Source: Bacillota bacterium
GTDB lineage: Bacteria; Bacillota; Bacilli; Alicyclobacillales; SLC66
Assembly: GCA_021821025.1 (NCBI GenBank)
Contig: JAKACY010000002.1
Location: forward strand, 1-36,872
Length of the DNA: 36,872 nt
Reading direction: 5' to 3'
The notes below the pieces were generated by a model, which searched no databases, was not told where the DNA came from, and saw only the letters and a list, made by a program, of their open reading frames with translations. Position numbers and translations under genes: made by a program. Shown here piece by piece: positions 4,196-30,091 of this stretch. How positions within the stretch are numbered: the stretch's first letter is position 1; every line of letters begins with the position of its first letter.

Positions 4196-4234
4196 GCCTG
4201 AGATGAAGTGCTAGAAGAAATAACGCTGTTATTA

Positions 4235-4269: not shown

Positions 4270-4474
4270 GACCGCATGCATAGTTTGAATCGAAGGGGTG
4301 ACTCCTCAATCGATGCGCAGAAGTACCTTCACAAGGTGAAATAGTACGGTGATTTGATTCTGGATATTGCTAGAGACCACTACGGGCCATTTCCATAAGC
4401 GTGGATAACCGCATTGTCAAGGTAGATGGTGGTACGCAGGTATCACTTGTCTCTTTGGGTGGACCAAAATAGCT

Positions 4475-8741: not shown

Positions 8742-9419
8742 TCAAGTGAAGAAGACAATCGTGCGCTCGCATGCATTTTTCAGGTGCGTGGCCATGGCTT
8801 GAACGGCTCTAGTTGTATCTCGGGATTGGAGCGCCGTCAGAATGTCATGGTGCTCCATCCATTCTGCTTCGCTGAAATCGGCTTGGGTAAAGATGGCGAT
8901 ATAGTTGAGATACCTTTGGATACGGGCGATGTGTTCGTTCACAGCGGCAGCGAGGACGTCGTTGTCGCAGTACTTGAGCACAACGCCATGGACCGAATTG
9001 TTTATCGACTCAATCCAGTTGCGAAACCCGCTTGCGCTTATCACGGTGGGACTGGACAACTGCTGGAGGTGTTCTTGAACAGCAAGAAGTTCCCACTGCG
9101 GGATGACCGGGGTGGCCTTTTCTACGGCGTATGATTCAAGAACCCGCCGAATTTCGAAGATGCTATGCAGTTCCTTACGAGAGATGTGCGAGACAAAGGT
9201 ACCTTTAAATGGAACTGTCTCGACGAACCCCTCAGATGCTAGTCTGGACAGCGCCTCTCGGATAGGAATGTTGCTGACCTCCCACTTTCTGGAGAGTTGA
9301 TCGATATTGATACGATCCCCCGACTTCAGTTGATAAGAGAGAATTTGCTGCTTGATCAGCTTGTATAGTTCATCGGTCAAAACATAGCGCATCGGGCGAT
9401 TTTTCAAGGACTCCTCCAC
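8742..9419 (-). CDS. GntR family transcriptional regulator (FadR/FCD subfamily)
   Basis: 225 aa. Winged-helix motif LKSGDRINIDQLSRKWEVSNIPIREALSRLASEGFVETVPFKGTFV, followed by a helical FCD-like C-terminal domain. Confidence 0.9.
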   Translation of the reverse strand: MEESLKNRPMRYVLTDELYKLIKQQILSYQLKSGDRINIDQLSRKWEVSNIPIREALSRLASEGFVETVPFKGTFVSHISRKELHSIFEIRRVLESYAVEKATPVIPQWELLAVQEHLQQLSSPTVISASGFRNWIESINNSVHGVVLKYCDNDVLAAAVNEHIARIQRYLNYIAIFTQADFSEAEWMEHHDILTALQSRDTTRAVQAMATHLKNACERTIVFFT

Positions 9420-11454: not shown

Positions 11455-11569
11455 AGAATCACAGCCTCCTCACTTGACCTTCTGGATATGGCATACGTTG
11501 GTATGCCCCTGTCTGCTTTGAATCTGTTTTGAATCTGTTTTCTGTGCATGTAGGACCTGCTGCGGTTGC

Positions 11570-12517
11570 TCAGTCTTTCAAAGATCCAATCATCACCCCT
11601 TTGACGAAGTATCGTTGGGCCAGCGGATATAAAGCGACCATCGGAATGCTGCCGATGACGATGAGTGAGTATTTAAGGAGGGTTGCAACGTTTTGGTAGT
11701 AGATCAACTCTTGTGGAGATAGGGTGCTCATGAAACCAAACCCTCCCATGCTAACATTGTTAAACTCGAGAATCGAACGCAACACCATGATGAGTGGATA
11801 CAGTGAAGTTGAATTCAGGAAGATAAGTGCTGGAAAGTATGAGTTCCAGTCTGTGACCATGGTTAGCAGCGCAATGACGGCGATGATAGGCTTTGAAATG
11901 GGGATGACGATACGCATGAAGAATCCGAAATCACTCGCACCGTCAATCTCGGCAGCCTCGCGCAGTGCCTGCGGCACACTGGCTTGGAAAAACGTCTTCG
12001 CCAGGATGATTAGAAACACGTTTAATGCAAAGGGTACAATCTGTGACCATATGGTGTTGAGCATGCCGAGGTCTTGGACGACGATGTAAAATGGGATAAG
12101 CCCCCCGTTGAACATCAAGGCAAACAGTAAGAGCCAGACGAAAATCTTGCGACCCACGAGGTCTCGGACGGACAGAGGATAGGCCATTAGCAAGGTCAGG
12201 ATGACTGTTAACAGCGTGCCGCCTACTGAGTAGATAATAGAGTGCCAGAGCCCCGGTAATACCGTGTTGTAGCGAAAGACGGCAGAGTACCCATCGAGCG
12301 TAAAGTGGACCGGCCATAACCAGACCTTCCCGTCGATGACAGCCGCACCGGAACTTAGGGATGAGCTGATAATGTAGATCATCGGGTAGACAACTGCAAT
12401 GCCTATAGCGGTCAAGGAGCTATAGATAAGGATGAGAAATAGTCGGTCGCCCGTTGATTCCCGAACATGATTTCTATGCTCAGACGATTTTGTGAATTGG
12501 GTGCTTGGCAGTGACAT
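11570..12517 (-). CDS. Carbohydrate ABC transporter permease (LplC-like)
   Basis: 315 aa, multi-TM. The EAA-type loop reads ALREAAEIDGASDFGFFMRIVIP. Confidence 0.9.
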   Translation of the reverse strand: MSLPSTQFTKSSEHRNHVRESTGDRLFLILIYSSLTAIGIAVVYPMIYIISSSLSSGAAVIDGKVWLWPVHFTLDGYSAVFRYNTVLPGLWHSIIYSVGGTLLTVILTLLMAYPLSVRDLVGRKIFVWLLLFALMFNGGLIPFYIVVQDLGMLNTIWSQIVPFALNVFLIILAKTFFQASVPQALREAAEIDGASDFGFFMRIVIPISKPIIAVIALLTMVTDWNSYFPALIFLNSTSLYPLIMVLRSILEFNNVSMGGFGFMSTLSPQELIYYQNVATLLKYSLIVIGSIPMVALYPLAQRYFVKGVMIGSLKD

Positions 12518-12553
12518 CCAGTTTCCCCCCGTGCTCGATAAGATTATGTAGAC

Positions 12554-13528
12554 TTAGAACAGGCTGGTATCGGACACATATCGAGCAACGATATTGGCGA
12601 TGACCAATAGAATGAATCCGATGACGGAGTTGAATAGACCGACTGCGGTTGCAAACGAGAAGTTCGCGTCGACCAATCCTACCTGGTAGGTGTAGGTCGA
12701 GATGACCTGAGATGTGCTCATGTTCAGTGGGTTCTGCATGAGAAAGACCTCCTCCAAGGATGCGGCGTTCAACAGTCCACCAATTGCAAGAATCACGAGG
12801 ACGATGACGGTAGGTTTGATACCTTGCCAATCAATGTTTAGAATCCTCTGAAATCTCGAAGCGCCATCAATGCGCGCGGCGTCGTATAGTTCTGGATTTA
12901 CGTTAGATAAGGCTGCCAAGTAGATTACGGCTCCATATCCAGTTGTTTGCCAGACGCCAGACCAGACGTATAAAGATGAGAATGCGCCGGGGCTGGACAT
13001 CCAATCAGGGACGTTGCTCACGCCAAACAGGTGGAACAAGCCTGCAAGCGGGCTTGCGCTAGGCGCGAGCAAAATCTGCATCATTCCCACCAGGACCACG
13101 GCGGAAACAAAGTAGGGAATATAGGTAATGGTCTGGATTGTCTTTTTGAACCACAAGTGCTTGACTTCATTAAGCGCGATGGCGAGAACGATGGAAGCGA
13201 TGGTGCCGATGATGAGAGAGTAAACTCCGATGGTCAGTGTGTTATCGAGAGTCGGCCAAAAGTAGGGGGACTGGAGCCAGAACTGCATCTCCTGCATGCC
13301 TATCCACGGGCTGTGCCAGATTCCTCCAACGGGATTGTACATACGAAAGGCAATCTGAATTCCAAGCATCGGCCAATAGTTGAAAATAGCCAAAAAAGCA
13401 AGCGGAAGACTGATCATCGCGTACAGTTGCCAGTGTCGGATGATTCGCTTTGCCAGACTCTTTCTTCTGATACCGGCACCGATAGACACTTCGTTGGATG
13501 CGTTGACAGCGTTGATTGGGATCCCCAT
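12554..13528 (-). CDS. Carbohydrate ABC transporter permease (LplB-like)
   Basis: 324 aa with RBS AAGGGGAGGG. The N-terminus RHWQLYAMISLPLAFLAIFNYWPMLG and the loop YDAARIDGASRFQRILNI are typical of LplB/YteP permeases. No ATPase gene is present, as is usual for CUT1 systems that use a shared MsmX-type ATPase. Confidence 0.9.
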   Translation of the reverse strand: MGIPINAVNASNEVSIGAGIRRKSLAKRIIRHWQLYAMISLPLAFLAIFNYWPMLGIQIAFRMYNPVGGIWHSPWIGMQEMQFWLQSPYFWPTLDNTLTIGVYSLIIGTIASIVLAIALNEVKHLWFKKTIQTITYIPYFVSAVVLVGMMQILLAPSASPLAGLFHLFGVSNVPDWMSSPGAFSSLYVWSGVWQTTGYGAVIYLAALSNVNPELYDAARIDGASRFQRILNIDWQGIKPTVIVLVILAIGGLLNAASLEEVFLMQNPLNMSTSQVISTYTYQVGLVDANFSFATAVGLFNSVIGFILLVIANIVARYVSDTSLF

Positions 13529-13809
13529 ATAAACCCTCCCCTTATGTGTAACTTTAACCAGAGTCTTTTATTCAATTTTACATGTCACCCAACTACGTAC
13601 TCGCACCTCGAATTCAGTATGGAGTTTTCTGCAAGATTTAAAGAGATTTAAACTGCGGTCAGTTCTTTTAATATCGTGCTGCTGACTTTCAGGTAGTGCC
13701 AGAGGGTAGATCCCGTTATCGTGAAGTGATAGGTCAGATTATCACGGAGTAGGTCATGATGCGTGAGTCGATGATGGGTTAAATTGTAAAATAGGCTGGT
13801 CACCGAGAA

Positions 13810-13871
13810 AATCATACATGATTTATTGTTGTAACTGCCGACATTCTATTACGAATTTTCCGACTTGTCAA
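13810..13871 (-). promoter_or_regulatory. Minus-strand promoter TTGACA-17-TAGAAT with downstream operator AATCATGTATGATT (plus coordinates 13810..13823), upstream of the ABC importer operon
   Basis: The reverse complement reads ggTTGACAagtcggaaaattcgtaaTAGAATgtcggcagttacaacaataAATCATGTATGATT. The -35 box is at 13866-13871 and the -10 box at 13843-13848. The same 12-mer core occurs at 13932 and 20421. Confidence 0.5.
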
Positions 13872-13900
13872 CCATCAAGAGCGGTTTCTTGACTCTGGAA

Positions 13901-13943
13901 TTGACTATTCATAATAATATTAATAGACTAAATCATGTATGAT
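13901..13943 (+). promoter_or_regulatory. Plus-strand promoter TTGACT-17-TAGACT with abutting operator ATCATGTATGAT (13932..13943)
   Basis: TTGACT at 13901-13906, a 17-nt AT-rich spacer, TAGACT at 13924-13929, 2 nt, then ATCATGTATGAT. The architecture and spacing are the same as at 20390..20439. Confidence 0.55.
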
Positions 13944-14035
13944 GTATAATATTTGTGGTGTTCGATAAGTTTGCTAAGTCGATCTCAGAGGAGTCGCATG
14001 AAGCAACCGCTCGGAGGCAGACAGGGGGAATATCG

Positions 14036-14436
14036 GTGAAAATCATCAACGTGGAAGCGTATACACTTCAGGAGCCAGTTGCACCACCGTTTGTTTGGAG
14101 ACGGGGGCTTCCTGGGTCGGGAACGATGAATGAGCTGATCTCGTTCGCACGAGTACTGGGTTAAAAGGCGGAATTACGGGTGCGCTTAGAATTGCACATC
14201 TAGCAGATTCATTTGGTATGAAAGCGGAAATACACGGGGGTGGCTTACCTAACCTTCACCTTGCGTGCGCAATCCCTAACAATTCCTATTATGAAATCCT
14301 GGTCTTTGGGGAACCTGCACAATTCGCCCACAATATAGGGCCAGATAGCTGCATTTTTGTGCCTAATGATCCAGGTATCGGATATCAATTCGATTGGGAG
14401 GAATTGAAACAAAAAGCAGTTCTGAAGATTGAATAA
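14036..14436 (+). pseudogene. Enolase-superfamily (mandelate racemase/muconate lactonizing enzyme-like) dehydratase with a large internal deletion
   Basis: GTG 14036 (RBS GGGGGA) opens VKIINVEAYTLQEPVAPPFVWRRGLPGSGT, a typical capping-domain N-terminus. From about 14134, in a different frame, the sequence reads ADLVRTSTGLKGGITGALRIAHLADSFGMKAEIHGGG...PNNSYYEIL...PGIGYQFDWEEL, a typical barrel C-terminus. The roughly 250 codons carrying the KxK/D/E/E catalytic residues are absent. Confidence 0.65.
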
Positions 14437-14691
14437 GACCATCCGGGATCGGTCCGGGCAGTATTGAATCGGAACTCATCATGTTCAGGTAGATCGAACA
14501 ATGGTTGGGAGAAATACCGCAACTCACGATTCAGAATATTCATCAGCTTGTGTATGATAGTAAAGGATCGTAGCATGGTAGGATGGTATTTTGGCCAGTG
14601 AGGAGTCCGGTTACGGGGAATTAGTGGGTCCTTTTGAAAAGTAAAGTACGAGAAGCTTTAAATTCCTTAAGACACGGTGGGGTGGATCAGA

Positions 14692-15528
14692 ATGGACCGG
14701 ATTGACGCGCACCAACACTACTGGAAGTTGGATCGTGGAGACTACGCCTGGTTGACTCCGGAGTATGGTCCCTTGTACCGGGACTTTCTTCCGCAGGACC
14801 TTCGTCCCTATTTAGACAGTTGTGGTATTTCAAAGACAATTGTTGTACAGGCTGCGCCGACCGTGGAAGAAACAGAGTTCTTACTCAAACTTGCTGACAA
14901 CCACCCTTCCATTGCCGGTGTTGTCGGTTGGTTGAATTTGGAGTCCGATGATTTTCCTGCAAAATTGCAACGCATGTCTCGGCATCCAAAGTTTGTAGGC
15001 ATTCGGCCCATGCTTCAGGATCTGCCGCAAGACGATTGGATCCTGAGACGGCAAGTAGTGGACAATGTCGCGATTATAGTGGAGCAAGAAATTCCGATGG
15101 ACATCCTGGTTTTCCCACGCCACCTACCGTACATTTCTCGCCTCTTACAAATGTTCCCCAAGCTGCATGGGGTCATTGACCATTTAGCCAAGCCGCCGAT
15201 CCATGCGCGGGTTTTGGAACCTTGGCGTTCCCTCATCGCTGAAATTGCAGAGTATCCATCTGTCATGTGCAAACTTTCCGGGATGGTGACAGAAGCAGAT
15301 CATGAAAACTGGAAGCCATCTGACCTACGTCCATACGTTGAACATGTCCTAAGCGTCTTCGGACCGGATCGAGTGATGTTCGGCAGTGACTGGCCAGTGT
15401 GTACAGCGGTTGCCGATTATGAGACGGTTTACCAGACTCTTCAGGATCTGCTACCGAAGGACTTATCTCATGAGAAATGGGATCTTATCTTTGGTGGAAA
15501 TGCCGCAAGATTTTACGGAATCGAGTGA
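14692..15528 (+). CDS. Amidohydrolase_2 (COG3618) family; candidate L-fucono-/L-galactono-1,5-lactonase
   Basis: ATG 14692 follows GGTGGGGTGGA. The N-terminus MDRIDAHQHYW, then VIDHLAKPPI, CKLSGMVTEA and MFGSDWPVC, match the COG3618 sugar-lactonase pattern. Confidence 0.8.
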   Translation: MDRIDAHQHYWKLDRGDYAWLTPEYGPLYRDFLPQDLRPYLDSCGISKTIVVQAAPTVEETEFLLKLADNHPSIAGVVGWLNLESDDFPAKLQRMSRHPKFVGIRPMLQDLPQDDWILRRQVVDNVAIIVEQEIPMDILVFPRHLPYISRLLQMFPKLHGVIDHLAKPPIHARVLEPWRSLIAEIAEYPSVMCKLSGMVTEADHENWKPSDLRPYVEHVLSVFGPDRVMFGSDWPVCTAVADYETVYQTLQDLLPKDLSHEKWDLIFGGNAARFYGIE

Positions 15529-15570
15529 GCACTCGTTCGTTCTCATATTTCGAAAGGGGCGTGAAATGAA

Positions 15571-16827
15571 TTGCCCAAAGACTGTAAACAACCGTGGTGG
15601 CAAGAAGCGAAATACGGAATGTTCATTCACTGGGGACTGTATGCTCAGTTAGCCGGAGAATGGAAGGGAATTCGGACACCCCATATCGGGGAATGGATCA
15701 TGAAGCATCTGGGCATCCCCGTCGATGAATATGAACAGGTGGCTCGACAGTTCAATCCGATCGATTTCGACGCATATCAATGGGTACGTTTGGCGAAAGA
15801 AGCTGGTATGAAGTACATCGTGATCACTGCGAAACACCATGACGGTTTCGCCATGTTTCATTCAACATGCTCGCCCTATAATATCGTGGATGCAACGCCT
15901 TTTAAAAGGGATCCCATCGCAGAATTGGCGCAAGCTTGTCAAGATGCGGGTATCAAGTTGTGTTTTTACTACTCCCAGGCTCAGGACTGGCATGACCCGA
16001 ATGGATATGGCTATGGGCCGATTCCAGATGAAAACAAAGACTTTTCAAAGTATCTCGAAGAAAAGTGCAAACCTCAACTTAGGGAACTGCTCACCCAATA
16101 CGGGGATGTTGGCCTCATTTGGTTTGACACGCCGCTGATTATGTCGGAGCAACATAGCAGGGAATTGGCGCAGTATGTCAAAAGTATACAGCCCAACTGC
16201 CTGGTCAGCGGTCGGATCGGCAATCAGATTGGAGACTATATGTCCACCGGAGACAATATGATTCCAGCTTTGCCGTACTATGGGGACTGGGAGGTTCCGG
16301 CGACGCTGAATGATACCTGGGGTTATAAATCATTCGACACCAACTGGAAATCTCCTAAAGACATCCTTCAGTTATTGGTCAAGATCAATAGTCGCGGCGG
16401 GAATTATTTATTAAACGTTGGCCCGGATGCGCGCGGAATTATTCCAGAAGCCAGTGCTCAGATTTTGCGGGAGGTTGGTCAATGGCTCGCTCGAAATGGC
16501 GCAAGCATTTACGGCACACAACCGGTTCCTGTTTTTCCGTACGAGTTGCCTTGGGGAACCTTCACCTACAAGCCAGGGAAATTGTATTTGCACGTCTTTG
16601 ACTGGCAAAAAGACATTCATATTCACGGCCTAGCCAATGATATGACAAAGGCTTATTGGCTTTCCACCGGGGCAGCGGTTCCCGTTGAACGTCGTTATAT
16701 TCCTTCACTCAAGCAACATCGAACTACCTTCCATCTTGGATCGACACCACAGGATTCGCTGGATTCTGTCATTTGTCTAGAGTTATATGGTGATCGCCTG
16801 ATGTTTGATTCACTGGATACCTTGTAA
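15571..16827 (+). CDS. GH29 alpha-L-fucosidase (paralog 1), no signal peptide
   Basis: TTG start; an in-frame TGA lies 9 nt upstream. Motifs: YGMFIHWGLY, TAKHHDGFAMF, GLIWFDTP (nucleophile Asp context) and GGNYLLNVGPDARG. Confidence 0.9.
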   Translation: MPKDCKQPWWQEAKYGMFIHWGLYAQLAGEWKGIRTPHIGEWIMKHLGIPVDEYEQVARQFNPIDFDAYQWVRLAKEAGMKYIVITAKHHDGFAMFHSTCSPYNIVDATPFKRDPIAELAQACQDAGIKLCFYYSQAQDWHDPNGYGYGPIPDENKDFSKYLEEKCKPQLRELLTQYGDVGLIWFDTPLIMSEQHSRELAQYVKSIQPNCLVSGRIGNQIGDYMSTGDNMIPALPYYGDWEVPATLNDTWGYKSFDTNWKSPKDILQLLVKINSRGGNYLLNVGPDARGIIPEASAQILREVGQWLARNGASIYGTQPVPVFPYELPWGTFTYKPGKLYLHVFDWQKDIHIHGLANDMTKAYWLSTGAAVPVERRYIPSLKQHRTTFHLGSTPQDSLDSVICLELYGDRLMFDSLDTL

Positions 16828-16901
16828 GGGCTCCTATTCGGAGTTGAATTCAACCTGTCTTACTACTATTTCCCATTTGGAAAGAAAGCGAGGATACCTC
16901 A

Positions 16902-17867
16902 ATGTCTAAATCTTTTGCCTCTCATCGTCCACTCGGTAGTACTGGACTAGTGGTCACGTCGCTCTGCGTTGGCGGTGCTCCATTGGGTGATATGCCAGAA
17001 ACCTTTGCCTACAGTGCACCAGAAGAGAATGCGCTAGCCACCATTCGTGCCGCCTTTGCAAGTCCCATCAACTTTCTCGATACTGCGGCCGCATATGGAG
17101 ATGGAGAAAGCGAGCGTCGAATTGGCAAGGTGATTCGCGAGATGGGCGGACTCCCAGCGGGCTTTGTATTAGCCACCAAAGCTGATCGCCATTTGCAAAC
17201 AGGAGACTTTAGTGGCGAACAAATCAAGCGTTCCATCGAAGGAAGTCTTCAGCGATTGGGACTTGACCGCTTGCAATATGTATATATCCACGATCCAGAA
17301 CACACCACTTTCGAAAATGTCATGGGATCGTGCGGACCGCTTGAAGTGTTGAAGAACTTTAAGGAGCAAGGAGTTATTGATCACATTGGTATATCCGGCG
17401 GTCCCATCGACATGCTGATTCGCTATGTACAAACAGGAGAGTTCAGCGCTGTGGAGACCCATAATCGCTACACCCTGCTCAACCGATCCGCGGAGCCTTT
17501 ACTGGATGTTGCCAATCAACTACATGTTGCGGTCATCAATGCGGCGCCCTACGGGAGCGGCATCTTAGCGAAAGGGCCAGATGCCTACGCTCGTTATGCA
17601 TACGATGATGCGCCCCCGGCGTTGCTTGAACGCGCTCGAGGGCTTGCAAGGGTCTGCCAGGAATACAATGTGCCGCTGGCAGCTGTGGCACTTCAATTCT
17701 CTCTAAGGGATCCCCGGATTACGAGCACTGTCGTTGGCATGACAAAGCCGGAACGCATCAGCCAGACTATGGAACTTGCCAGTTATCCCATTCCCGCGGA
17801 TATTTGGCCAAAACTAGATGCCATTGGGTTTGATACGGACAATCCCGAGGCCAATAGATTTAGATGA
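16902..17867 (+). CDS. Aldo/keto reductase; candidate L-fucose (D-threo-aldose) 1-dehydrogenase
   Basis: 321 aa with an AKR fold pattern (LDTAAAYGDGESERRIG, ATKADR, IHDPE, GISGG). The functional guess rests on the operon context and on the known AKR-type L-fucose dehydrogenase of Pseudomonas. Confidence 0.75.
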   Translation: MSKSFASHRPLGSTGLVVTSLCVGGAPLGDMPETFAYSAPEENALATIRAAFASPINFLDTAAAYGDGESERRIGKVIREMGGLPAGFVLATKADRHLQTGDFSGEQIKRSIEGSLQRLGLDRLQYVYIHDPEHTTFENVMGSCGPLEVLKNFKEQGVIDHIGISGGPIDMLIRYVQTGEFSAVETHNRYTLLNRSAEPLLDVANQLHVAVINAAPYGSGILAKGPDAYARYAYDDAPPALLERARGLARVCQEYNVPLAAVALQFSLRDPRITSTVVGMTKPERISQTMELASYPIPADIWPKLDAIGFDTDNPEANRFR

Positions 17868-17899
17868 ACACACGTCATGGCTAGGTAGGTGAAAACGCA

Positions 17900-18334
17900 A
17901 TGTTAATAGGGATTCCTGAAGTAATTTCTCCAGATTTGCTGAAGATCTTGATGGAGATGGGGCATGGAGACGAAATCGTATTGGCGGATGGAAACTTTCC
18001 GGCGGTAAGTCACGCTAATCGCTTAGTGAGAGCAGATGGGCACGGGATAGTCACTTTATTAGACGCAATTCTTGAGCTATTCCCACTGGATGCCTACGTC
18101 GATCATCCAGTTGCCCTCATGCAGGTTGTTCCCGGAGATACCGTGGAAACCCCAATTTGGGATACTTTCGCAGCTGTCCTTGGTGAGCGGACCGGAGTAA
18201 GTCAGCCATTTGAGTACATGGAGCGATTCTCATTCTACGAAAGGGCGCGCAAGGCGTATGCAATTGTTGCTACCGGTGAACGGGCATTGTACGCAAACAT
18301 GATCCTGAAAAAAGGCGTAATTTGCAAAAAATAG
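17900..18334 (+). CDS. fucU: L-fucose mutarotase (RbsD/FucU family)
   Basis: 144 aa. ISPDLLKILMEMGHGDEIVLADGNFP ... RFSFYERARKAYAIVATGERALYANMILKKGV is near-colinear with E. coli FucU as I recall it. Confidence 0.9.
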   Translation: MLIGIPEVISPDLLKILMEMGHGDEIVLADGNFPAVSHANRLVRADGHGIVTLLDAILELFPLDAYVDHPVALMQVVPGDTVETPIWDTFAAVLGERTGVSQPFEYMERFSFYERARKAYAIVATGERALYANMILKKGVICKK

Positions 18335-18343
18335 CCACGTTGG

Positions 18344-18628
18344 ATGAAGAATCTCCCACACGAAGAGGCGCGGAGTCAATTGAACTACATGTCGGATATC
18401 ATTCAGTGGGTTGCAGGTATCCGACCGCGCTTTTTCAGGCCTCTATATGGCGCTTTGAACGACGAAACGATTCGGATGGTCATGTGCTTGGGTTATAAGA
18501 TTCTGTTTTGGGATGTCGACAGTTTGGATTGGGCTGGAATGACCGCTACACAAGTGTCAAACAATGTATTGTCTCATACCGGGCCCGGCTCCGGGTATGC
18601 GGCCAAAACAGTTCTACCTAGCGCCTGA
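18344..18628 (+). pseudogene. Fragment of a CE4 (NodB-type) polysaccharide deacetylase
   Basis: RPRFFRPLYGALNDETIRMVMCLGYKILFWDVDSLDW matches the central FRPPYG...W.vDs.DW block of NodB domains. The N-terminal TFDDG/HxxxH metal site and the C-terminal LHD block are missing. No RBS is evident. Confidence 0.55.
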
Positions 18629-18647
18629 TCAACTTTTTTTCTAGAAG

Positions 18648-20183
18648 TTAGCGTAAGCCAAGCCGAAGTAACTGCTCTTCCGGTGCCCCGAGTTCCTTAA
18701 GCGTATTTTTGAGTCGCAACTGGAGTTCGGCCACCTTGTCGGGGTGGGACCGTGATAGGTTGATAAGTTCGTTCGGATCATTTTCTTTATCGCTAAGCCA
18801 CGTCTCAGTTTCCCATGAAACGCAATGATGGACCTGACGCCGGCCTGGGCGATAGGAGTGAACGGTCAGTGACTCGTCAGATGGCTCGCTCTCATACGGC
18901 CCTAACTCATAGGGGAGAAAGCGAGCCATGTGATGTCCATACCAGTAAAGCGGTTGGTTATCCTGGCAAGGCGATTGGTGAAGGATCCAGCGACCGTCAG
19001 TTAATGTGACGCTTTTTCCAAACTGTCCGGCTATGGCATACGATCGAATCGAGGTGTTAGGATCCAGCAGGACGGGATGGAGGTCTATTCCATGCCGTCC
19101 GGGTGGGCACGGTTTGTTCAGGGCACTGAGGACGGTCGGATATATGTCTACGAGTTGCACCAACTGACTTCGGCGTGTTCCAGCCTTTGCATCCGGGTGT
19201 GCCACAATAAAGGGGATATGTCCTACCGCGTCGTGTTCGTGTGTCTGCAGCTTTCCCAGTCTGCCGTGGTCCCCGTTATAAGTACCATGATCAGAAGTAA
19301 AAATAACCATCGTGTTGCGCCATAGGTTTAGTTCGTCCATCTTGTCGAGGAGTTTTCCCAACCACTTATCCACTAGCATCACGTGAGCGGCATAGCGGGC
19401 TTGGTAGTGACGTAGTTCATCGAAGGACATGTGGTTTCGCCAATGGTCGTAGGGGGCCATCGAACGCCAATGAGGTATATTGTAGCCGCGCGGGTCGAAT
19501 CGTTTAACCAGTTTCTCAGGCGCGTCCCAAGGTTCGTGCGGATCAAAACAGTCTACGTGAAGGTAGAACCCCTCATATGTGTGGTTATGTTCCAGCCAAT
19601 CTGCCGCCTTCGTAAAAACCTGAGCTGAAAAAGTATCCTTTTCATCGTGGTGCGTAAGGTGGACATTGCGAAAATGACGTTCTGTTTTATGAAAGGGTGG
19701 GTCTGGGTTAGGAAATGTGACAGGGTTAGTTTTCCAAGCGTCCGCCTCGTGCCCGCGAATAAACTCAAATCCGGAGTAACCCATATGGTAGTTACCTGAT
19801 CCTTGCTCCCACAAGTGAAAATGATCTGTGACGAGATAACTAATCGAAAAGCCTTCCGCTTGTACCTTTGCAAGCGACTGATTGGGTGGGCCCGAAACTT
19901 GACGAGGCAGATCCAGGTCTTCGTCCTCTAAAGGTCCCCAGCCGCGTTCGAGAAACTCATAGCGTCCTGTATAGATATCTCTACGAGCTGGCATACACGG
20001 GGTTGATCCGCACCATGCATGATCAAATACCACTCCGCGGGCAGCAAGCCGATCCATGTTCGGCGTCGGAACAGTCCATTCTGCCTGCTCCGGGCCTGTT
20101 ACCTGAGAGAGTGGCAGGCCATGATGATAAGGGCCACAATGATCCCTGCGTAGAGTATCACATAAGATAACGATGCAATTCAT
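18648..20183 (-). CDS. Cys-type (formylglycine-dependent) sulfatase, no signal peptide
   Basis: 511 aa. N-terminal metal-site context IVILCDTLRRDH. The CxPxR motif TPCMPARRDIYTGRY is encoded at 19983..19997 (reverse complement tgt atg cca gct cgt). A later block reads FTSDHG. Confidence 0.85.
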   Translation of the reverse strand: MNCIVILCDTLRRDHCGPYHHGLPLSQVTGPEQAEWTVPTPNMDRLAARGVVFDHAWCGSTPCMPARRDIYTGRYEFLERGWGPLEDEDLDLPRQVSGPPNQSLAKVQAEGFSISYLVTDHFHLWEQGSGNYHMGYSGFEFIRGHEADAWKTNPVTFPNPDPPFHKTERHFRNVHLTHHDEKDTFSAQVFTKAADWLEHNHTYEGFYLHVDCFDPHEPWDAPEKLVKRFDPRGYNIPHWRSMAPYDHWRNHMSFDELRHYQARYAAHVMLVDKWLGKLLDKMDELNLWRNTMVIFTSDHGTYNGDHGRLGKLQTHEHDAVGHIPFIVAHPDAKAGTRRSQLVQLVDIYPTVLSALNKPCPPGRHGIDLHPVLLDPNTSIRSYAIAGQFGKSVTLTDGRWILHQSPCQDNQPLYWYGHHMARFLPYELGPYESEPSDESLTVHSYRPGRRQVHHCVSWETETWLSDKENDPNELINLSRSHPDKVAELQLRLKNTLKELGAPEEQLLRLGLR

Positions 20184-20389
20184 CTATCCATCACCACTCA
20201 GTCCTTTGAAGTAGATGTTCCAGTTTTGTGTCAATCATGGCAGACGATTCGCCCATGGGGCCGGCTAATCGGAAGACTTCGGGTGTTGTGCCACCTCTAG
20301 AATCGTTGAGTGCATAAGACAGAAAAAGAAGGTCTGGTTCGCAATTATATGACTGTCAATCGATGATAGCGATTTTCCGGTTAGGGTAA

Positions 20390-20439
20390 TTGACTTATCT
20401 GAATATTATGCTTAGACTGAATCATGTATGATACATGAT
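20390..20439 (+). promoter_or_regulatory. Promoter TTGACT-17-TAGACT with the 19-bp perfect palindrome operator ATCATGTAT-G-ATACATGAT (20421..20439)
   Basis: TTGACT at 20390-20395, a 17-nt spacer, TAGACT at 20413-20418, 2 nt, then the palindrome. The layout matches 13901..13943. Confidence 0.6.
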
Positions 20440-20550
20440 GTTTGCAGCATTTTATCGAGCGTCTTTAACGCTTTGATCTACACTGTCATCATGTAGTTTC
20501 GCTGGTGATCATGTGATTTTTAGATAAGGTTGAGAAAGTGAGGAGTTGCC

Positions 20551-21648
20551 GTGAAGATCACGAAGGTGGAAAGCTTCGTCCTGCACGTACCACTCAATCC
20601 CCCGATTACCGATGCCATTAATTCACCTACGCATTGGGGGTTGCCTGGAGTACGGATATTTACGGACGAGGGTATCGTGGGATACGGCTATACCGGAACT
20701 TGCGCGTTAGGTGATGAGATGATCGCGGACACAATTGATCGGTACTACGCCCCCGCACTATTGCAGCGCGATCCATTTCTGGTCCGGGATATCTGGCAGA
20801 GTCTGCGTTATGGTGACTTGCACTGGGTAGGTAGGGCGGGCATCACGCAGATGGCGTTGGCCGCGGTGGATATCGCGCTGTGGGACATCATGGCTAAAGC
20901 CGCGGGAGAGCCATTGTGGCGGTATTTGGGCGGGCATAAGACAGACGGAATAAAGGCATACAACACGAATGGCGGATGGTTAAACTGGACGACTGACCGC
21001 CTGCTGCAGGATATAACCACCTTCGTTGATGAGGGTTTTACGGGCGTGAAGATGAAGGTGGGCAAACCGGACCCGAAAGAAGATTACGAACGGGTCAAGG
21101 CGGTGCGCCAAGCCATCGGAGACGACGTAGACCTGATGTTGGATGTCAATCAGGGCTGGAACATTACTACGGCGATGCGATGGGGTAAAAAGCTCGAAGA
21201 TTTTGACCCGCTATGGTTGGAAGAACCTCTGAACCCGGATGATACGATTGGCCATAAGAAATTGGCTGATGAACTCAACACGGCCATCGCGCTCGGGGAG
21301 CACCTATACACGAAGTACGCTTTTCGAGATTACATCCATCAAGGTGCGGTGGAGTACGTGCAGGTCGATGCGACCCGGGTCGGCGGTATCACAGAATGGT
21401 TGGAAGTCGCCGGGCTTGCGGCGGCGTATGACCTGCCCATCGTCCCACACGTTGGTGACATGGGCCAAATACACCAGCACTTGGTTGCAGCGACGAGAAA
21501 TGCGCCGATGCTGGAGTATATTCCGTGGATTCGGCATATCTTTGTTGAGCCGGTACAAGTGGAGAAAGGTCGTTACAGGTTGCCTGAATTGCCGGGAGCT
21601 GCGACGGAGGTCTCTCCGGAGGCGTTTGAAAGGTACCGCGTTCGCTAA
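20551..21648 (+). CDS. Enolase-superfamily, MR-subgroup acid-sugar dehydratase; candidate L-fuconate/L-galactonate dehydratase
   Basis: GTG start 5 nt after GAGGAG. Motifs: KxK (GVKMKVG), metal ligands in LMLDVNQGW, WLEEP and ALGEH, and the Asp/His dyad in VQVDATRVGGITE and IVPHVG. Specificity is inferred from context only. Confidence 0.8.
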   Translation: MKITKVESFVLHVPLNPPITDAINSPTHWGLPGVRIFTDEGIVGYGYTGTCALGDEMIADTIDRYYAPALLQRDPFLVRDIWQSLRYGDLHWVGRAGITQMALAAVDIALWDIMAKAAGEPLWRYLGGHKTDGIKAYNTNGGWLNWTTDRLLQDITTFVDEGFTGVKMKVGKPDPKEDYERVKAVRQAIGDDVDLMLDVNQGWNITTAMRWGKKLEDFDPLWLEEPLNPDDTIGHKKLADELNTAIALGEHLYTKYAFRDYIHQGAVEYVQVDATRVGGITEWLEVAGLAAAYDLPIVPHVGDMGQIHQHLVAATRNAPMLEYIPWIRHIFVEPVQVEKGRYRLPELPGAATEVSPEAFERYRVR

Positions 21649-21773: not shown

Positions 21774-23024
21774 ATGGCAGCCATACATCCAGGTGCCCAG
21801 TGGTTTCCGGACGCAAAGCTGGGTATGTTCATTCATTGGGGCCCGTATTCACTAAGAGGGATTGAGGCTTCGTGGCCGCTTCAGCCGCACAGCCATCAGT
21901 ATATCGCGACTGAGGAGTACGAGGCGTTGGCCCTGGACTTTTGCCCTGAACACTACGATCCTGTTAAATGGGCTCGCATGGCTAAAGAGGCGGGAGCCAA
22001 GTACGTCGTGCTGACGGCAAAGCACCACGATGGCTACTGTCTGTTTGATACCAAGACCACCGACTACTGTGCGCCGAAAACAGGGCCTGGCGTTGATCTC
22101 ATCACTCCGTATGTGGAGGCCGTACGCGCTGCTGGGCTCAAGGTCGGATTCTACTTCACCACGATTGATTGGCACGATCCTGATTTTGCTACTATTCCTA
22201 TCAAGTCCTACATCCAGTCTCCTAAACCATTTGTTTATGATCCGCAGCGCTGGTACAGTTTTCACCAACGTTTTATGACCCAACTCACGGAGTTATTGAC
22301 GAACTACGGGCAAATTGACCTGATCTGGTTTGACGTGCCAGGGTTCGGTGCGGATCGCTGGCGCAGCTATGAAGTCAAGCAGATGATGCTCAATCTACAG
22401 CCACACATCGTCATCAACGATCGGCTTCCTGAAGTGGGAGACTACGCAACACCGGAGCAGTTTATCCCACACCATCCACCGAAAGGCTGGTGGGAGACCT
22501 GCATGACCATGAACCATCAATGGGCGTATCACCCAGACGGGTCTACTTACAAGGATGTCCGCACCTTGATTCGAACCCTTACGGAGGTGGTGCACAAAGG
22601 GGGAAACCTGCTTTTGAACGTCGGACCGAAGCCGGACGGAACCTTTCCTCAGGAGGCTGTACAGCGCCTTGAGAGCATCGGCCAGTGGATGGGACATTCG
22701 GGATCCAGTCTGTACGGAACACGCCCTGCGCCTGAAGGTGCTTCAGAGTGTTTCTATGGGCCGCTGACAACTAAGGATAACACAGTGTTCCTGCACGTGT
22801 TGGACATTCCGCAAGGGCCTGTCGAACTGCGAGGCGTTGCTGGCGAGGTCGTGAGCGTTACACTGATGTCGACAGGGGATCCGCTATCATACCGAGTACA
22901 TAACGCACCACACTTCTGGGACTCTAGCGAGCAGCGACTTGAAGTGGATTTGTCCCGTGAGCAGTGCGATCCGTACAATACCGTCATCGCGGTTGAGTTT
23001 GCGCAACCCCCTTTGTGGCCGTAG
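21774..23024 (+). CDS. GH29 alpha-L-fucosidase (paralog 2), no signal peptide
   Basis: RBS GAGGAGGGG. Motifs: LGMFIHWGPY, TAKHHDGYCLF, DLIWFDVPG and GGNLLLNVGPKPDG. Confidence 0.9.
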   Translation: MAAIHPGAQWFPDAKLGMFIHWGPYSLRGIEASWPLQPHSHQYIATEEYEALALDFCPEHYDPVKWARMAKEAGAKYVVLTAKHHDGYCLFDTKTTDYCAPKTGPGVDLITPYVEAVRAAGLKVGFYFTTIDWHDPDFATIPIKSYIQSPKPFVYDPQRWYSFHQRFMTQLTELLTNYGQIDLIWFDVPGFGADRWRSYEVKQMMLNLQPHIVINDRLPEVGDYATPEQFIPHHPPKGWWETCMTMNHQWAYHPDGSTYKDVRTLIRTLTEVVHKGGNLLLNVGPKPDGTFPQEAVQRLESIGQWMGHSGSSLYGTRPAPEGASECFYGPLTTKDNTVFLHVLDIPQGPVELRGVAGEVVSVTLMSTGDPLSYRVHNAPHFWDSSEQRLEVDLSREQCDPYNTVIAVEFAQPPLWP

Positions 23025-23053
23025 ATTTTGGGTGATAGGGAGGACGGTGCTCG

Positions 23054-23344
23054 GTGGCAAGGTATGGAATGGTCATCAAGGTGATGCCGGGAAAAGTCGA
23101 GGAGTATGTGCGGTTGCAACAAGCCGTGTGGCCTGAGGCTACTCCATCTTTTTGAAAGACGATCTGCTTTTTAGTTACTACGAGTAACAGGTGAGGATTA
23201 CGAGGGAGATATGGCGAAGATGGCCGCCGATTCGATGACGAAAAAATGGTGGGCACTTTGCGAACCTTGTCAGGACCCATTGCAGACGCGGGCCCCTGGC
23301 GAATGGTGGCCCAGATGGAGGAAGTGTTCCGACTGGACGAATGA
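23054..23344 (+). pseudogene. Decayed L-rhamnose-mutarotase-family (RhaM/YiiL, DUF718) gene, paralog of 35763..36089
   Basis: GTG 23054 reads VARYGMVIKVMPGKVEEYVRLQQAVWPE, then about 30 nt are missing relative to the intact copy. A 1-nt deletion creates TAA (YYE*), and another 1-nt deletion lies near the end (GEWW/QMEEVFRLDE*). The nucleotide alignment to 35763..36089 is obvious by eye and includes the RBS region. Confidence 0.7.
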
Positions 23345-23417
23345 AGGCTGCGTGGTTCGTGGTGTCCGATGAATCTATGGAATTAGCGGATTTGATATAC
23401 CCGAAGGAGTGTGGAGA

Positions 23418-24719
23418 ATGGCAAAACTGCTGAGTAAGACAGAGTATGAGCAAAACGTGGCTGAGAGTCGCGATCGGCGGATGGCTTGGTGGCGAGAAGC
23501 CCGCTTTGGGATGTTCGTGCACTTTGGACTATACGCGCTCATTGGTAGAAACGAATGGGCGATGTCCTTGGAGAATTACCCAATTGCTGAGTATGAGAAG
23601 TTGGCCCAACAATTCAATCCAAAGCCTGGTGCGCCGAGGGAATGGGCGAAGCTAGCTAAGGCGGCAGGGATGAAGTACATGGTATTGACCACGCGGCATC
23701 ATGATGGCTTCAGCCTGTGGGATTCCAAGGTGAATCCGTACAATAGCGTGAACATCGGGCCGAAGCGGGACATCGTGCGCGAGTTCGTCGATGCTTGTCG
23801 GGAGTTCGACCTGCGCATTGGCTTTTACTCTTCGTTGATGGACTGGCACCATCCGGACGGTGGTCGTGCCGCGTATGATCGCGAGGCTCGCGCTCGCTTC
23901 ACAGCTTATGTGAAGGGGTTGAATCGCGAGCTCATGACGCAGTACGGAAAGATCGATGTACTATGGTACGACGTTGCTCTGCCCATGGAGACGTGGGAAG
24001 GTTGGGATTCGCTGACGATGAATCAGATGGTGCGCGAACTGCAACCGGATATCATTCTCAACAACCGCAGCAGACTGGACGAGGATTTCGGAACACCTGA
24101 GGAACACCTGACCGCGATGGACAGGGACTGGGAAGCGTGCATGACATTCAACGGCATCAGTTGGGGATATGTGGATTCTAAACAGGCGATGCCGTACAGC
24201 TATAATGCACAGCGCATCATCCGCATGCTAAATACCGTCACGGCAGGAGGAGGAAACCTACTTCTTAATATTGGCCCGGCGCCGGATGGATCTGTACCGC
24301 AGGAGGCCCAGGTACCGCTGGAAACGGTAGGGAGGTGGCTTGCGAGAAACGGGCAGGCGGCCTACGGGGTCAAGCAAAGAACGGAGTTTAGTAGGGCAAG
24401 TGGGGTATGCGGTAGTTCCCGCGAAGGCAACCGTGTATATCTGTGGAACTGGGTGTGGCCACGTGAGGGGCAGATGGCCCTCGGAGGGTTCGTAACACCC
24501 GTGAAGACTATTCGACTGGTGGAGGATGGTAAGCCGATTGAATTTGAACAACGCGGCCACCGCATTATTTTGAAAAACCTGCCCGCATCGTCGCCGGATG
24601 AAATTGCGGGTATCGCAGTTTTGGAACTGGAGTTTGAGGAACCTCCTGTGTTTCACTTCGCCAGTTACTTTCCGCAGCTGCACGGTGGTTTCGATTACGC
24701 AGAAAACGGGAAATTGTAG
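23418..24719 (+). CDS. GH29 alpha-L-fucosidase (paralog 3), no signal peptide
   Basis: ATG 23418 lies 8 nt after GAAGGAG. Motifs: RFGMFVHFGLY, TTRHHDGFSLW, DVLWYDVAL and GGNLLLNIGPAPDG. Confidence 0.9.
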   Translation: MAKLLSKTEYEQNVAESRDRRMAWWREARFGMFVHFGLYALIGRNEWAMSLENYPIAEYEKLAQQFNPKPGAPREWAKLAKAAGMKYMVLTTRHHDGFSLWDSKVNPYNSVNIGPKRDIVREFVDACREFDLRIGFYSSLMDWHHPDGGRAAYDREARARFTAYVKGLNRELMTQYGKIDVLWYDVALPMETWEGWDSLTMNQMVRELQPDIILNNRSRLDEDFGTPEEHLTAMDRDWEACMTFNGISWGYVDSKQAMPYSYNAQRIIRMLNTVTAGGGNLLLNIGPAPDGSVPQEAQVPLETVGRWLARNGQAAYGVKQRTEFSRASGVCGSSREGNRVYLWNWVWPREGQMALGGFVTPVKTIRLVEDGKPIEFEQRGHRIILKNLPASSPDEIAGIAVLELEFEEPPVFHFASYFPQLHGGFDYAENGKL

Positions 24720-24761: not shown

Positions 24762-26108
24762 ATGGAGATGGCTTACTATGGGTGGCCGGATAAGTACGGG
24801 AATCCGGACTGGTTAGTAAACGCTCGCTTTGGACTATTCATCCACTGGGGACTATACGCTGCCGCAGCGCGCCACGAGTGGGTGATGAATCGGGAGAAAA
24901 TCAATTCTGAGAAGTATCGCAAGTACTTTGAGCATTTCGACCCGGATCTATACGATCCGACAGTTTGGGCGGACGCGGCTAAGGACGCAGGCATGAAGTA
25001 CTTCGTCATCACGACGAAGCATCATGAGGGCTTCTCCCTCTGGGACTCACAGTTGACCGATTATAAGGCAACGAATACGCCTGCCGGACGCGACTTGCTT
25101 CGTCCGATGTTAGATGCATTTCGTAGTAGAGGATTGAAGGTAGGCATGTATCATTCCCTCATCGACTGGCATCATCCGGACTTCCCGATCGACGGCTTGC
25201 ATCCGATGCGCGACGACGAGGCATTCCGAGAGCAGGAGAAAGATCGGAAAATGGAGCGCTACGTCGAATATCTGCACGGACAAGTGAGGGAATTGCTGAC
25301 GAACTACGGGAAGATAGACTACCTGTGGTTTGACTTCTCGTATTCCAAGATGGATTGGGGCTGGTCGAAAGGAAAGGGTGCTCTGGACTGGCAGTCTGAG
25401 GCCTTGGAACGGCTGGTCTTGGAACTGCAACCCGATATCCTGTTAAATGATAGGCTTGAACTGGGTCGCGGCGTTGTCACCCCGGAGCAGTACCAACCTC
25501 GGCAGGCCATCACGCAGGGCGGGCAACCAGTTATCTGGGAGGCTTGCCAGACGTTAAATGGGAGTTGGGGATACGACCGAGACAACCACGATTACAAGTC
25601 CGTCGAGATGCTGGTCAAGATGCTGATCGACAGCGTATCAAAAGGGGGCAACTTGCTGCTCAACGTCGGCCCCACAGGGCGCGGAGAGTTTGATGAGCGA
25701 GCATTGTCGAGCTTGCAGGGAATTGGAAAATGGATGCGCCAGCATTCACGATCGATTTACGGAGCAGGTAGTAGCGAATTTGACGCACCAGTAGATTGTC
25801 GTTATACACAACGAGGCGATCGGCTGTACTTGCATATCTACTCTTGGCCCTACCGTCACATTCACTTAAGCGGATTGGCTGGACGCATCAGTTACGCCCA
25901 GCTATTGCACGATGCTTCGGAAGTCAAGTATGTCGAGCACACGGGCCGTCAATCCGAATCGCCTATCGACGTCGCCGAGACAGACGGTACAGTCACTTTA
26001 GAGTTGCCAGTTCAACAACCAAATGTGGTAGTCCCTGTGGTCGAGTTGTTCTTGAACCACGGGAAGTATCCCGAAGGCGTGCGTAGAGTTCGACACGTGT
26101 CAGGGTGA
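24762..26108 (+). CDS. GH29 alpha-L-fucosidase (paralog 4), no signal peptide
   Basis: AGGAGG upstream; the start is ATG 24762 or, with better spacing, ATG 24768. Motifs: RFGLFIHWGLY, TTKHHEGFSLW, DYLWFDFSY and GGNLLLNVGPTGRG. Confidence 0.9.
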   Translation: MEMAYYGWPDKYGNPDWLVNARFGLFIHWGLYAAAARHEWVMNREKINSEKYRKYFEHFDPDLYDPTVWADAAKDAGMKYFVITTKHHEGFSLWDSQLTDYKATNTPAGRDLLRPMLDAFRSRGLKVGMYHSLIDWHHPDFPIDGLHPMRDDEAFREQEKDRKMERYVEYLHGQVRELLTNYGKIDYLWFDFSYSKMDWGWSKGKGALDWQSEALERLVLELQPDILLNDRLELGRGVVTPEQYQPRQAITQGGQPVIWEACQTLNGSWGYDRDNHDYKSVEMLVKMLIDSVSKGGNLLLNVGPTGRGEFDERALSSLQGIGKWMRQHSRSIYGAGSSEFDAPVDCRYTQRGDRLYLHIYSWPYRHIHLSGLAGRISYAQLLHDASEVKYVEHTGRQSESPIDVAETDGTVTLELPVQQPNVVVPVVELFLNHGKYPEGVRRVRHVSG

Positions 26109-28824: not shown

Positions 28825-28936
28825 CGACTTATTGATTTATTTGTCGATATGGGTTTTGGGGTGCTCTTTTCGGCTAAAGATAGGTTCTTGATCAACTCAT
28901 CTTAGCCTTACGGAAAGCACCTTCAGTAATTATCGG

Positions 28937-29064
28937 AAGTGGCGATCTAGCAAAAAACAGCTTACAGCGGCTGTTGGGCCCTAGAATACAGACTCGGTGG
29001 CAGTGAAGAGCTGGGCGAAGCGGTGGACTTGGCTGAACGAAACGGAGCAGTATGTCTGCGATAG
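28937..29064 (+). pseudogene. 3'-terminal remnant of a second TIM-barrel isomerase gene (paralog of 27739..28512)
   Basis: 28951..29064 reads QKTAYSGCWALEYRLGGSEELGEAVDLAERNGAVCLR*. The intact gene reads LQKAGYSGCWALEYRLGSSEYLGVAVDLAELKRAV. Nucleotide similarity to 28395..28510 is visible by eye. Confidence 0.65.
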
Positions 29065-29909: not shown

Positions 29910-30091
29910 GGCTCAATTCCTCCTCGTCAATCTTGGTCTCAGTATATATCAAAATGAGGTACATATATGCGCAATTTTGACATTTTCATATAGAAACGAT
30001 GCATTATGATGAAAGTACAGGGCGAGCTGGCAATGAGGTGGACCCTTGGTTCTTGAGGACGGGGCGGGTTGGAGTTGAAGGGAGTCCAGTT

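Follow-up and report, generated by a model that had tools for sequence, protein, structure and literature searches.

Here, we report the analysis of a 36,872-nucleotide stretch of DNA from a Bacillota bacterium (GenBank JAKACY010000002.1; hereafter the window), which probably represents a fucoside-utilization island carrying the upper half of an oxidative L-fucose pathway, with substrates predicted from sequence comparisons. A preliminary description of this DNA had proposed such a route, incomplete in the window, on the basis of genes for a FucU mutarotase, an aldo-keto reductase (AKR), a COG3618 lactonase and a dehydratase of the mandelate racemase (MR) subgroup, accompanied by an LgoD-like Zn-dehydrogenase and uxaC. 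Pfam and NCBIfam scans of every open reading frame (ORF) of at least 100 amino acids (aa) found all six genes where they had been placed; the window carries the upper module and none of the lower steps. The genes, their catalytic motifs, the promoter-operator cassettes in front of them and the conserved neighbourhoods in relatives can be observed directly.

In the proposed pathway, oligosaccharides would enter the cell via an ABC importer, and five alpha-L-fucosidases of glycoside hydrolase family 29 (GH29; genes at 15571, 21774, 23409, 24762 and about 34267) together with a GHL6-type enzyme would release L-fucose in the cytoplasm, possibly after a sulfatase has stripped sulfate. FucU would supply the correct anomer of L-fucose, the AKR would oxidise it to L-fucono-1,5-lactone, the COG3618 amidohydrolase would open this lactone, and the 365-aa MR-subgroup enzyme would dehydrate the resulting L-fuconate to 2-keto-3-deoxy-L-fuconate (L-KDF). 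The lower half expected from Paenibacillaceae would consist of a type-2 L-KDF 4-dehydrogenase, which is a short-chain dehydrogenase/reductase (SDR), and a FAH-family 2,4-diketo-3-deoxy-L-fuconate hydrolase, yielding pyruvate and L-lactate.

Upper-pathway enzymes and their promoter-operator cassettes

The AKR has the catalytic tetrad D60/Y65/K93/H130, and its top five PDB matches are all L-galactose dehydrogenases (2e-37 to 2e-33). Its orthologues, 75-87% identical, occur in Paenibacillus, Alicyclobacillus, Ammoniphilus and Caldilineaceae and are often labelled in their source as D-threo-aldose 1-dehydrogenase, an alternative name of L-fucose dehydrogenase. It is thus a member of a family with proven L-fucose/L-galactose activity, and its own substrate is predicted; Bacteroides BVU_0219 also falls in the L-galactose dehydrogenase AKR cluster (PMC12632266). 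The lactonase shows an N-terminal DAHQH and a C-terminal GSDWPV motif. Its sole PDB relative (4DLF/4DNM/4DO7, 1.3e-47) is presumably the L-fucono-1,5-lactonase of Burkholderia multivorans (BmulJ_04915).

The family of the 365-aa dehydratase was examined with HMM and phmmer scores. Residues K167-x-K169, D198, E224, E250, D273 and H300 do not vary among 12 diverse homologues and correspond to the features of the MR subgroup, namely the K-x-K motif of strand 2, the D/E/E metal ligands and the dyad formed by His (strand 7) and Asp (strand 6). The best PDB match is full-length (3TJ4/4H19, residues 1-362, 2.5e-109), followed by L-talarate/galactarate dehydratase (TalrD/GalrD) structures at about 1e-63, whereas the structures of FucD and ENOSF1 (2HXT, 1YEY and 4A35) align only to the barrel (residues 132-360, about 1e-53). 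The protein had been noted as shorter than the roughly 440-aa FucD type; FucD chains in PDB are indeed 436-444 aa long, and the N-terminal capping domain of the 365-aa protein is about 75 residues shorter. It was therefore rejected as a FucD orthologue, since full-length and capping-domain homology is absent and other MR families score higher. 3TJ4/4H19 is a 372-aa MR-family protein, presumably of Agrobacterium tumefaciens (EFI-502087); a literature search for a published function of 3TJ4/4H19/EFI-502087 gave no relevant result, and the dehydratase homologues carry only generic names among the 120 matches listed.

These genes share three promoter-operator cassettes. The 12-mer ATCATGTATGAT occurs in exactly three copies in the whole metagenome-assembled genome (MAG) to which the window belongs, all of them in the window (13811-13822 on the minus strand; 13932-13943 and 20421-20432 on the plus strand); no exact copy was found elsewhere in the MAG, where one-mismatch matches are at about chance level. 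A fourth copy, inverted and with one mismatch, overlaps the third (20428-20439), and the window thus holds four operator matches versus 0.34 expected. A TTGAC(T/A)-17-TAGA(C/A)T promoter lies 2-3 bp before each exact copy (13871-13843 on the minus strand, 13901-13929 on the plus strand, and 20390-20418 with TTGACT-17-TAGACT). The cassettes head the importer operon (13871-13811), a unit composed of a dead enolase gene, lactonase, GH29, AKR and FucU, and a unit of the dehydratase followed by three GH29 genes. Because the cassettes are identical, the importer, lactonase and dehydratase operons appear to be under common control as one GntR regulon, of which the GntR/FCD protein encoded in the window is the likely repressor. 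In the window search, no GntR operator was found near UxaC or at the LgoD-like gene.

Dehydratase neighbourhoods in related bacteria and gene content of the island

To place the dehydratase in context, one genome per species was scanned, which gave 580 loci, and the best 80 were analysed. They come from Paenibacillus, Cohnella and related Bacillales (Gordoniibacillus, 'Bacillus' sp. and a Pseudogracilibacillus MAG), with dehydratases 73-80% identical to that of the window; genes were counted by tblastn with positional filters.

In 52 of the 80 loci, an SDR (class A) lies immediately upstream of the dehydratase; the best solved relative of its representative is human HSD17B14 (1e-56), which has been reported as an L-fucose dehydrogenase (PMC11293516). 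The AKR replaces this SDR in the window and likewise in L015 (Paenibacillus oryzisoli) and L016 (Paenibacillus sp. Soil766). A second SDR (class B, 35-43% identical to class A) forms a pair with a FAH-family gene no more than 10 kb from the dehydratase in 25 loci; it was counted when at least 65% identical to its representative, and 24 of the 25 such SDRs in all were within 300 bp of the FAH gene. Its best solved relative is 4DQX, a structural neighbour and marker of the type-2 L-KDF 4-dehydrogenase, whose activity has been assayed for the Paenibacillus ehimensis enzyme (PMC11199699). FAH is absent within 10 kb at the remaining 55 loci, and four loci without a linked pair (L015, L016, L010 and L008) have class B SDR and FAH genes adjacent to each other elsewhere in the same genome. 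Further neighbours of the dehydratase include a COG3618 lactonase (15/80), a GH29 or GH95 fucosidase (32/80), GntR orthologues with 44-49% identity (44/80) and the same three importer gene clusters; the operator motif, with at most one mismatch, is present in 49 loci, against 0.09 expected per locus.

Judged by these predicted functions, the usual Paenibacillaceae layout is that of route 3, i.e., an SDR L-fucose dehydrogenase, a short MR dehydratase, a type-2 KDF dehydrogenase and a FAH hydrolase. L-Fuconate dehydratase is the best reading of the 365-aa enzyme, because 52 of its orthologues adjoin the HSD17B14-like SDR and another 25 the pair of type-2 L-KDF dehydrogenase and FAH. The specificity of the dehydratase had been left open in the preliminary description; the 80 orthologue neighbourhoods now tie it to L-fucose enzymes.

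The features of the island are listed in Table 1. The GH29 gene at 15571-16827 and the sulfatase gene at 18648-20183 lie inside the interval of the proposed route, although they had not been listed there. The sulfatase has a C-x-P-x-R motif and no signal peptide, and no gene for a formylglycine-generating or anSME maturase was found in the window. Its gene points away from the dehydratase operon, with which it may share the control region 20390-20439. Seven of the 80 loci contain an orthologue of the RhaM-family mutarotase (55-62% identity), which comes right behind the dehydratase in at least L011 and L039.

Table 1. Genes, remnants and control elements of the island, with positions in the window
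Feature	Position	Strand	Support
UxaC glucuronate isomerase	392-1795	+	Pfam UxaC, 7e-220
GntR/FCD-type regulator	8742-9419	-	Pfam GntR and FCD
ABC importer: 557-aa binding protein and two permeases	9781-13528	-	Pfam BPD_transp_1 on both permeases
Divergent control region with two ATCATGTATGAT operators	13811-13943	.	Each operator directly after a sigma-70-like promoter
Dead enolase-superfamily gene	13955-14436	+	MR_MLE_C match 14125-14400, 47.8 bits, internal TGA
COG3618 amidohydrolase, predicted L-fucono/L-galactono-1,5-lactonase	ORF 14677-15528, ATG 14692	+	Pfam Amidohydro_2, 1.4e-52
GH29 alpha-L-fucosidase, cytoplasmic	15571-16827	+	Pfam Alpha_L_fucos, 2.6e-85
Aldo-keto reductase, predicted NAD(P)+-dependent L-fucose/L-galactose 1-dehydrogenase	16902-17867	+	Pfam Aldo_ket_red, 1.9e-45
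FucU-type L-fucose mutarotase	17900-18334	+	Pfam RbsD_FucU, 6.6e-44
Cys-type sulfatase, cytoplasmic	18648-20183	-	Pfam Sulfatase, 2.8e-33; C-M-P-A-R motif
Third promoter-operator cassette, heading the dehydratase operon	20390-20439	+	Promoter 20390-20418, operator 20421-20432
MR-subgroup acid-sugar dehydratase, 365 aa, predicted L-fuconate dehydratase	20551-21648	+	Pfam MR_MLE_N and MR_MLE_C
GH29 alpha-L-fucosidase paralogue	21774-23024	+	Pfam Alpha_L_fucos, 8e-89
GH29 alpha-L-fucosidase paralogue	23409-24719	+	Pfam Alpha_L_fucos, 3e-82
GH29 alpha-L-fucosidase paralogue	24762-26108	+	Pfam Alpha_L_fucos, 6e-87
AraC-type regulator, divergent from the LgoD-like operon	28962-29909	-	Pfam HTH_18 and AraC_binding
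LgoD-like Zn-dependent dehydrogenase, candidate L-galactonate 5-dehydrogenase	30092-31120 (ORF 29999-31120)	+	ADH_N and ADH_zinc_N
GHL6-type glycosidase	31201-33225	+	Pfam
252-aa ORF	33287-34045	+	No Pfam match
Lactonase C-terminal remnant	34075-34250	+	48% identity to residues 225-280 of the intact lactonase
GH29 with Fucosidase_C	about 34267-35694	+	Pfam
RhaM-family mutarotase	35736-36089	+	NCBIfam YiiL_rotase, 1.2e-12

Lower-pathway steps, origin of the contig and alternative explanations

The window had been described as lacking a KDF dehydrogenase/hydrolase pair and an aldolase, which agrees with our searches: the Pfam scan found no SDR, FAH, DHDPS or HpcH gene in any of the examined ORFs, and tblastn with the KDF-dehydrogenase SDR and FAH hydrolase of the relatives (E <= 1e-3) gave neither a match nor a remnant. 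The pathway is therefore incomplete as far as the window is concerned. One suggestion had been that these steps are encoded elsewhere in the genome. The window is the entire contig C239 of the MAG (2.5 Mb in 261 contigs, 81% complete, 1.1% contamination), and in this assembly one diverged FAH-family gene, the only one in the MAG, was found on contig C110 (12448-13320), and neither an orthologue of the KDF dehydrogenase nor an aldolase candidate was detected. The other suggestion, that the unassigned Gfo/Idh/MocA (5763) or TIM-barrel (27739) genes perform the missing steps, is not borne out, as both belong to separate LacI-associated units without the GntR operator. The TIM-barrel protein was also tried as an IolO-like epimerase and rejected, having no NCBIfam or solved-structure relative. 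It is most likely that the SDR-FAH unit of this pathway lies on unsampled DNA or is partly replaced by the diverged FAH of C110.

Searches of the sampled part of the MAG turned up neither a dehydratase of the FucD or UxaA type nor a classical FucI or FucA; HpcH gave one weak match inside a 625-aa ORF. A weak Fucose_iso_C match on contig C222 was rejected as FucI, being a 457-aa protein beside a PFK-family kinase. This cluster (2006-5059), under a GntR/UTRA regulator, consists of the 457-aa protein, the kinase and a shortened class II fructose-bisphosphate aldolase (142 aa), and it is an unassigned ketose-phosphate route and not a classical fuc operon. The only Aldolase_II match is in a 707-aa ORF, far longer than stand-alone FucA, which presumably resembles a fused rhamnulose-1-phosphate aldolase/dehydrogenase. 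On contig C198 (6285-9287), three genes encode a 462-aa MR-family dehydratase (best solved relative 2QQ6) and then two SDRs; this operon was dismissed as a FucD-type module because FucD is not among the solved relatives and the SDRs are 24-35% identical to those of the fucose pathway.

The contig itself differs from the rest of the bin. Its tetranucleotide correlation with the bin is 0.83 (median 0.93), the seventh lowest among 85 contigs of at least 10 kb. Among the 20 closest GTDB relatives of the MAG (16 of them at least 90% complete; 12 of the same family, eight of these at least 90% complete), no genome contains the dehydratase at E <= 1e-60, and the lactonase was found in none of the 12 same-family genomes. 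The nearest homologue of the MAG's housekeeping RNase J is from Ferroacidibacillus (84%), followed by Effusibacillus, Kyrpidia, Tumebacillus and Alicyclobacillus at 71-77%; among the 120 matches listed, those outside its own uncultured group and Ferroacidibacillus reach 71-78%, and none is from Paenibacillus. In contrast, the dehydratase and AKR of the contig are 75-87% identical to Paenibacillus proteins. Based on the atypical composition, the absence of the dehydratase from relatives and the Paenibacillus-like metabolic genes, the fucose island is either horizontally acquired or mis-binned; if it is mis-binned, the other contigs of the MAG are uninformative on the pathway.

Several of our observations weigh against the oxidative L-fucose assignment. 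None of three curated equivalog cut-offs was reached: the lactonase scored 252 bits against the L-fucono-1,5-lactonase model NF052480 (cut-off 400), FucU 139.4 bits against L-fucose mutarotase (just under the cut-off of 141), and the dehydratase, which reached no NCBIfam equivalog cut-off at all, at best 281 bits against L-talarate/galactarate dehydratase (NF047820, cut-off 500), an assignment that was rejected accordingly. The closest orthologues of the dehydratase (L006-L009, 79-80% identity) have an ABC transporter, a two-component system and a CoA-transferase as neighbours and lack fucose genes within 10 kb, and alphaproteobacterial homologues (47-48% identity) are found beside TRAP transporters, likewise without fucose genes; the family may thus not be uniformly fucose-specific. 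In L015 (4335-7088) and L016, a 918-aa ORF with two altronate/galactarate dehydratase (UxaA family) domain sets lies directly upstream of the AKR, lactonase, GntR and MR dehydratase genes. This fucose locus therefore has two candidate acid-sugar dehydratases, of which the UxaA-family protein could be the L-fuconate dehydratase. With regard to the lower steps, the best SDR match of the MAG to the type-2 KDF dehydrogenase is only 34% identical, the C110 FAH is 55-59% identical to operon FAHs that share about 70% with each other, and the only DHDPS (contig C246) was rejected as a KDF aldolase, being the housekeeping dapA in an asd-dapG-dapA-rnj cluster. The compositional and phylogenetic atypicality of the contig also weakens any argument from the rest of the genome, and the dead enolase-type, lactonase and RhaM copies make decay of the route possible.

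A non-canonical lower pathway, in which a medium-chain (MDR) Zn-dehydrogenase of C110 (14377-15375, minus strand) would oxidise L-KDF at C4 and the FAH would cleave the diketone to pyruvate and L-lactate, is unlikely in our view. The FAH is the only family member in the MAG, it lies in one operon with the MDR gene and two genes downstream of it, and, at the above identity to hydrolases paired with the type-2 KDF dehydrogenase, it retains the H94-x-x-E97 dyad as well as the metal ligands E135/E137/D166, all of them invariant in the operon hydrolases. Such a His/Glu dyad is a signature of C-C hydrolases (PMC6336799). On the other hand, C110 has no GntR operator, no SDR gene adjoins the FAH, and the MDR-FAH pairing is not conserved: it was not seen in the 20 closest relatives, the top MDR matches in a sample of 300 further genomes from its class reached only 43-50% identity, and G020, the one genome in which both matches were placed, has them on different contigs. 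The operon also contains an aldose epimerase, an esterase and a glycerate kinase, resembling another sugar-oxidation route, and C110 would be irrelevant if the window is foreign to the bin. The whole cluster (10531-16555: glycerate kinase, MDR Zn-dehydrogenase, aldose 1-epimerase, FAH of the H-x-x-E type and esterase, with divergent AKR and amidohydrolase genes) looks like part of another oxidative sugar route without its own dehydratase.

The LgoD-like protein raises the question of L-galactose. Its likeness to LgoD, pointed out previously, is borne out by 46% identity to the Escherichia coli protein over 326 aa (E 2e-100); homology starts at residue 32 of the ORF, corresponding to the start at 30092. 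The best PDB match is RspB (4e-51), and the score against NCBIfam PRK10083 is 210 bits (cut-off 376). Characterised members of the enzyme families involved accept derivatives of L-fucose, L-galactose and D-arabinose, which have C2-C4 stereochemistry in common; by this analogy the upper module probably handles L-galactose too, and an L-galactose branch is plausible. A Bacteroides-type L-galactose route as the main role of the AKR and lactonase, with the LgoD-like enzyme leading to D-tagaturonate and the MR dehydratase left to a side branch or another acid sugar, has a low probability. The window encodes all three enzyme families of the Bacteroides vulgatus pathway, its AKR belonging to the L-galactose dehydrogenase cluster. 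The LgoD-like gene runs in the same direction as genes for glycosidases and a mutarotase, with which it is apparently co-transcribed, and in the fucose locus L038 (Gordoniibacillus kamchatkensis) an orthologue with 58% identity is flanked by the SDR-FAH pair on one side and the dehydratase on the other. However, the LgoD-like gene is in an AraC-associated unit without the GntR operator that joins the AKR, lactonase and dehydratase, and FucU, the five GH29 enzymes and the HSD17B14-like and KDF-dehydrogenase context of the dehydratase indicate 6-deoxy-L-galactose. Furthermore, no altronate dehydratase (GD_AH family) was detected in the sampled 81% of the genome, which has two Mannitol_dh-family genes, and UxaC is 28 kb away and is not needed for a D-tagaturonate route.

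A slightly smaller chance is given to a truncated or decaying route, in which L-fucose would be oxidised only to L-fuconate or L-KDF, to be excreted or cross-fed, or to a recently acquired and partly eroded island. Gene remnants are indeed numerous. The dead enolase gene, first behind the promoter-operator of the lactonase operon, keeps its N- and C-terminal pieces and has lost the barrel core; it does not resemble the 365-aa dehydratase, neither the 80 loci nor the MAG yielded a close homologue, and no family fitted when an assignment was attempted. Of a second lactonase, the last approximately 50 codons (34075-34266) are kept in frame at the start of the ORF running into the GH29 fucosidase, and the upstream rest is gone, with the 252-aa ORF in its place. 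A RhaM-like pseudogene (23051-23338) lies between two GH29 genes, and a fragment at 28825-29052 is paralogous to the C-terminus of the TIM-barrel gene. The island thus has a high load of gene fossils, and the missing KDF-dehydrogenase orthologue and aldolase in the MAG, the absence of the dehydratase from all 20 taxonomic relatives and the atypical tetranucleotide profile point in the same direction. Nevertheless, none of the four upper-pathway genes, six glycosidases or three promoter-operator cassettes is damaged, an argument for selection; the MAG leaves about 19% of the genome unsampled, and the SDR-FAH pair is often unlinked in relatives, 55 of the 80 loci having no FAH within 10 kb.

Relation to known pathways and implications

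The proposed upper L-fucose module is close to route 3 as known from Xanthomonas campestris (XCC4065-4070) and Paenibacillus ehimensis (PMC11199699), sharing the order of mutarotase, 1-dehydrogenase, 1,5-lactonase and dehydratase steps and the same COG3618 family. It differs in that the dehydrogenase is an AKR and not an SDR, the dehydratase is a 365-aa MR protein and not the roughly 440-aa FucD, and the contig lacks genes for the KDF dehydrogenase and hydrolase. With FucD/ENOSF1 the dehydratase has in common the MR subgroup, K-x-K, D/E/E ligands, His-Asp dyad and predicted reaction, but it is non-orthologous, aligning over the barrel only and with a shorter capping domain. The closest solved relative, 3TJ4/4H19, is alike over its full length; the alphaproteobacterial homologues with TRAP transporters need not share the function.

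Three families of the window are also those of the B. vulgatus L-galactose pathway (BVU_0219 AKR, BVU_0220 lactonase and BVU_0222 dehydrogenase) and of E. coli LgoD; here, in contrast, the LgoD-like gene belongs to an AraC-associated operon of its own, and it is the MR dehydratase and FucU that share their regulation with the AKR and lactonase. The fum cluster of Bifidobacterium (route 1; PMC6817895) is likewise Gram-positive, with GH29/GH95 enzymes, an ABC importer, a mutarotase, a lactonase and an MR-family dehydratase, but it ends with a DapA-type KDF aldolase, whereas the only DHDPS of our MAG is the housekeeping dapA. This is a known pathway with non-orthologous enzyme types, its novelty being limited to those substitutions, and no open question depends on this known-pathway biology. 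We see only a slim chance that the 365-aa lineage was recruited for L-fuconate dehydration independently of FucD/ENOSF1 and that the pathway is closed without an SDR by an MDR Zn-dehydrogenase (that of C110 or the LgoD-like enzyme); if true, the MDR-closed pathway would combine enzymes in a way that is new for the oxidation of deoxy-hexoses in Bacillota.

The locus shows shuffling of fucose modules among soil Bacillota, with either an AKR or an SDR dehydrogenase and with a linked or unlinked SDR-FAH pair. Pathway-completeness calls from MAGs are unreliable where a sugar island is horizontally acquired or mis-binned. According to a 2026 review, the characterised L-fuconate dehydratases comprise only X. 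campestris FucD, human ENOSF1 and an enzyme of Paraburkholderia mimosarum (PMC13406643), the last encoded by genes for a heteromeric L-fuconate dehydratase placed within the UxaA/GarD-family phylogeny (PMC6336799). If the 365-aa family, which is widespread, shares this role, it would add a further type of L-fuconate dehydratase and correct the generic label "mandelate racemase family" that its members now carry.

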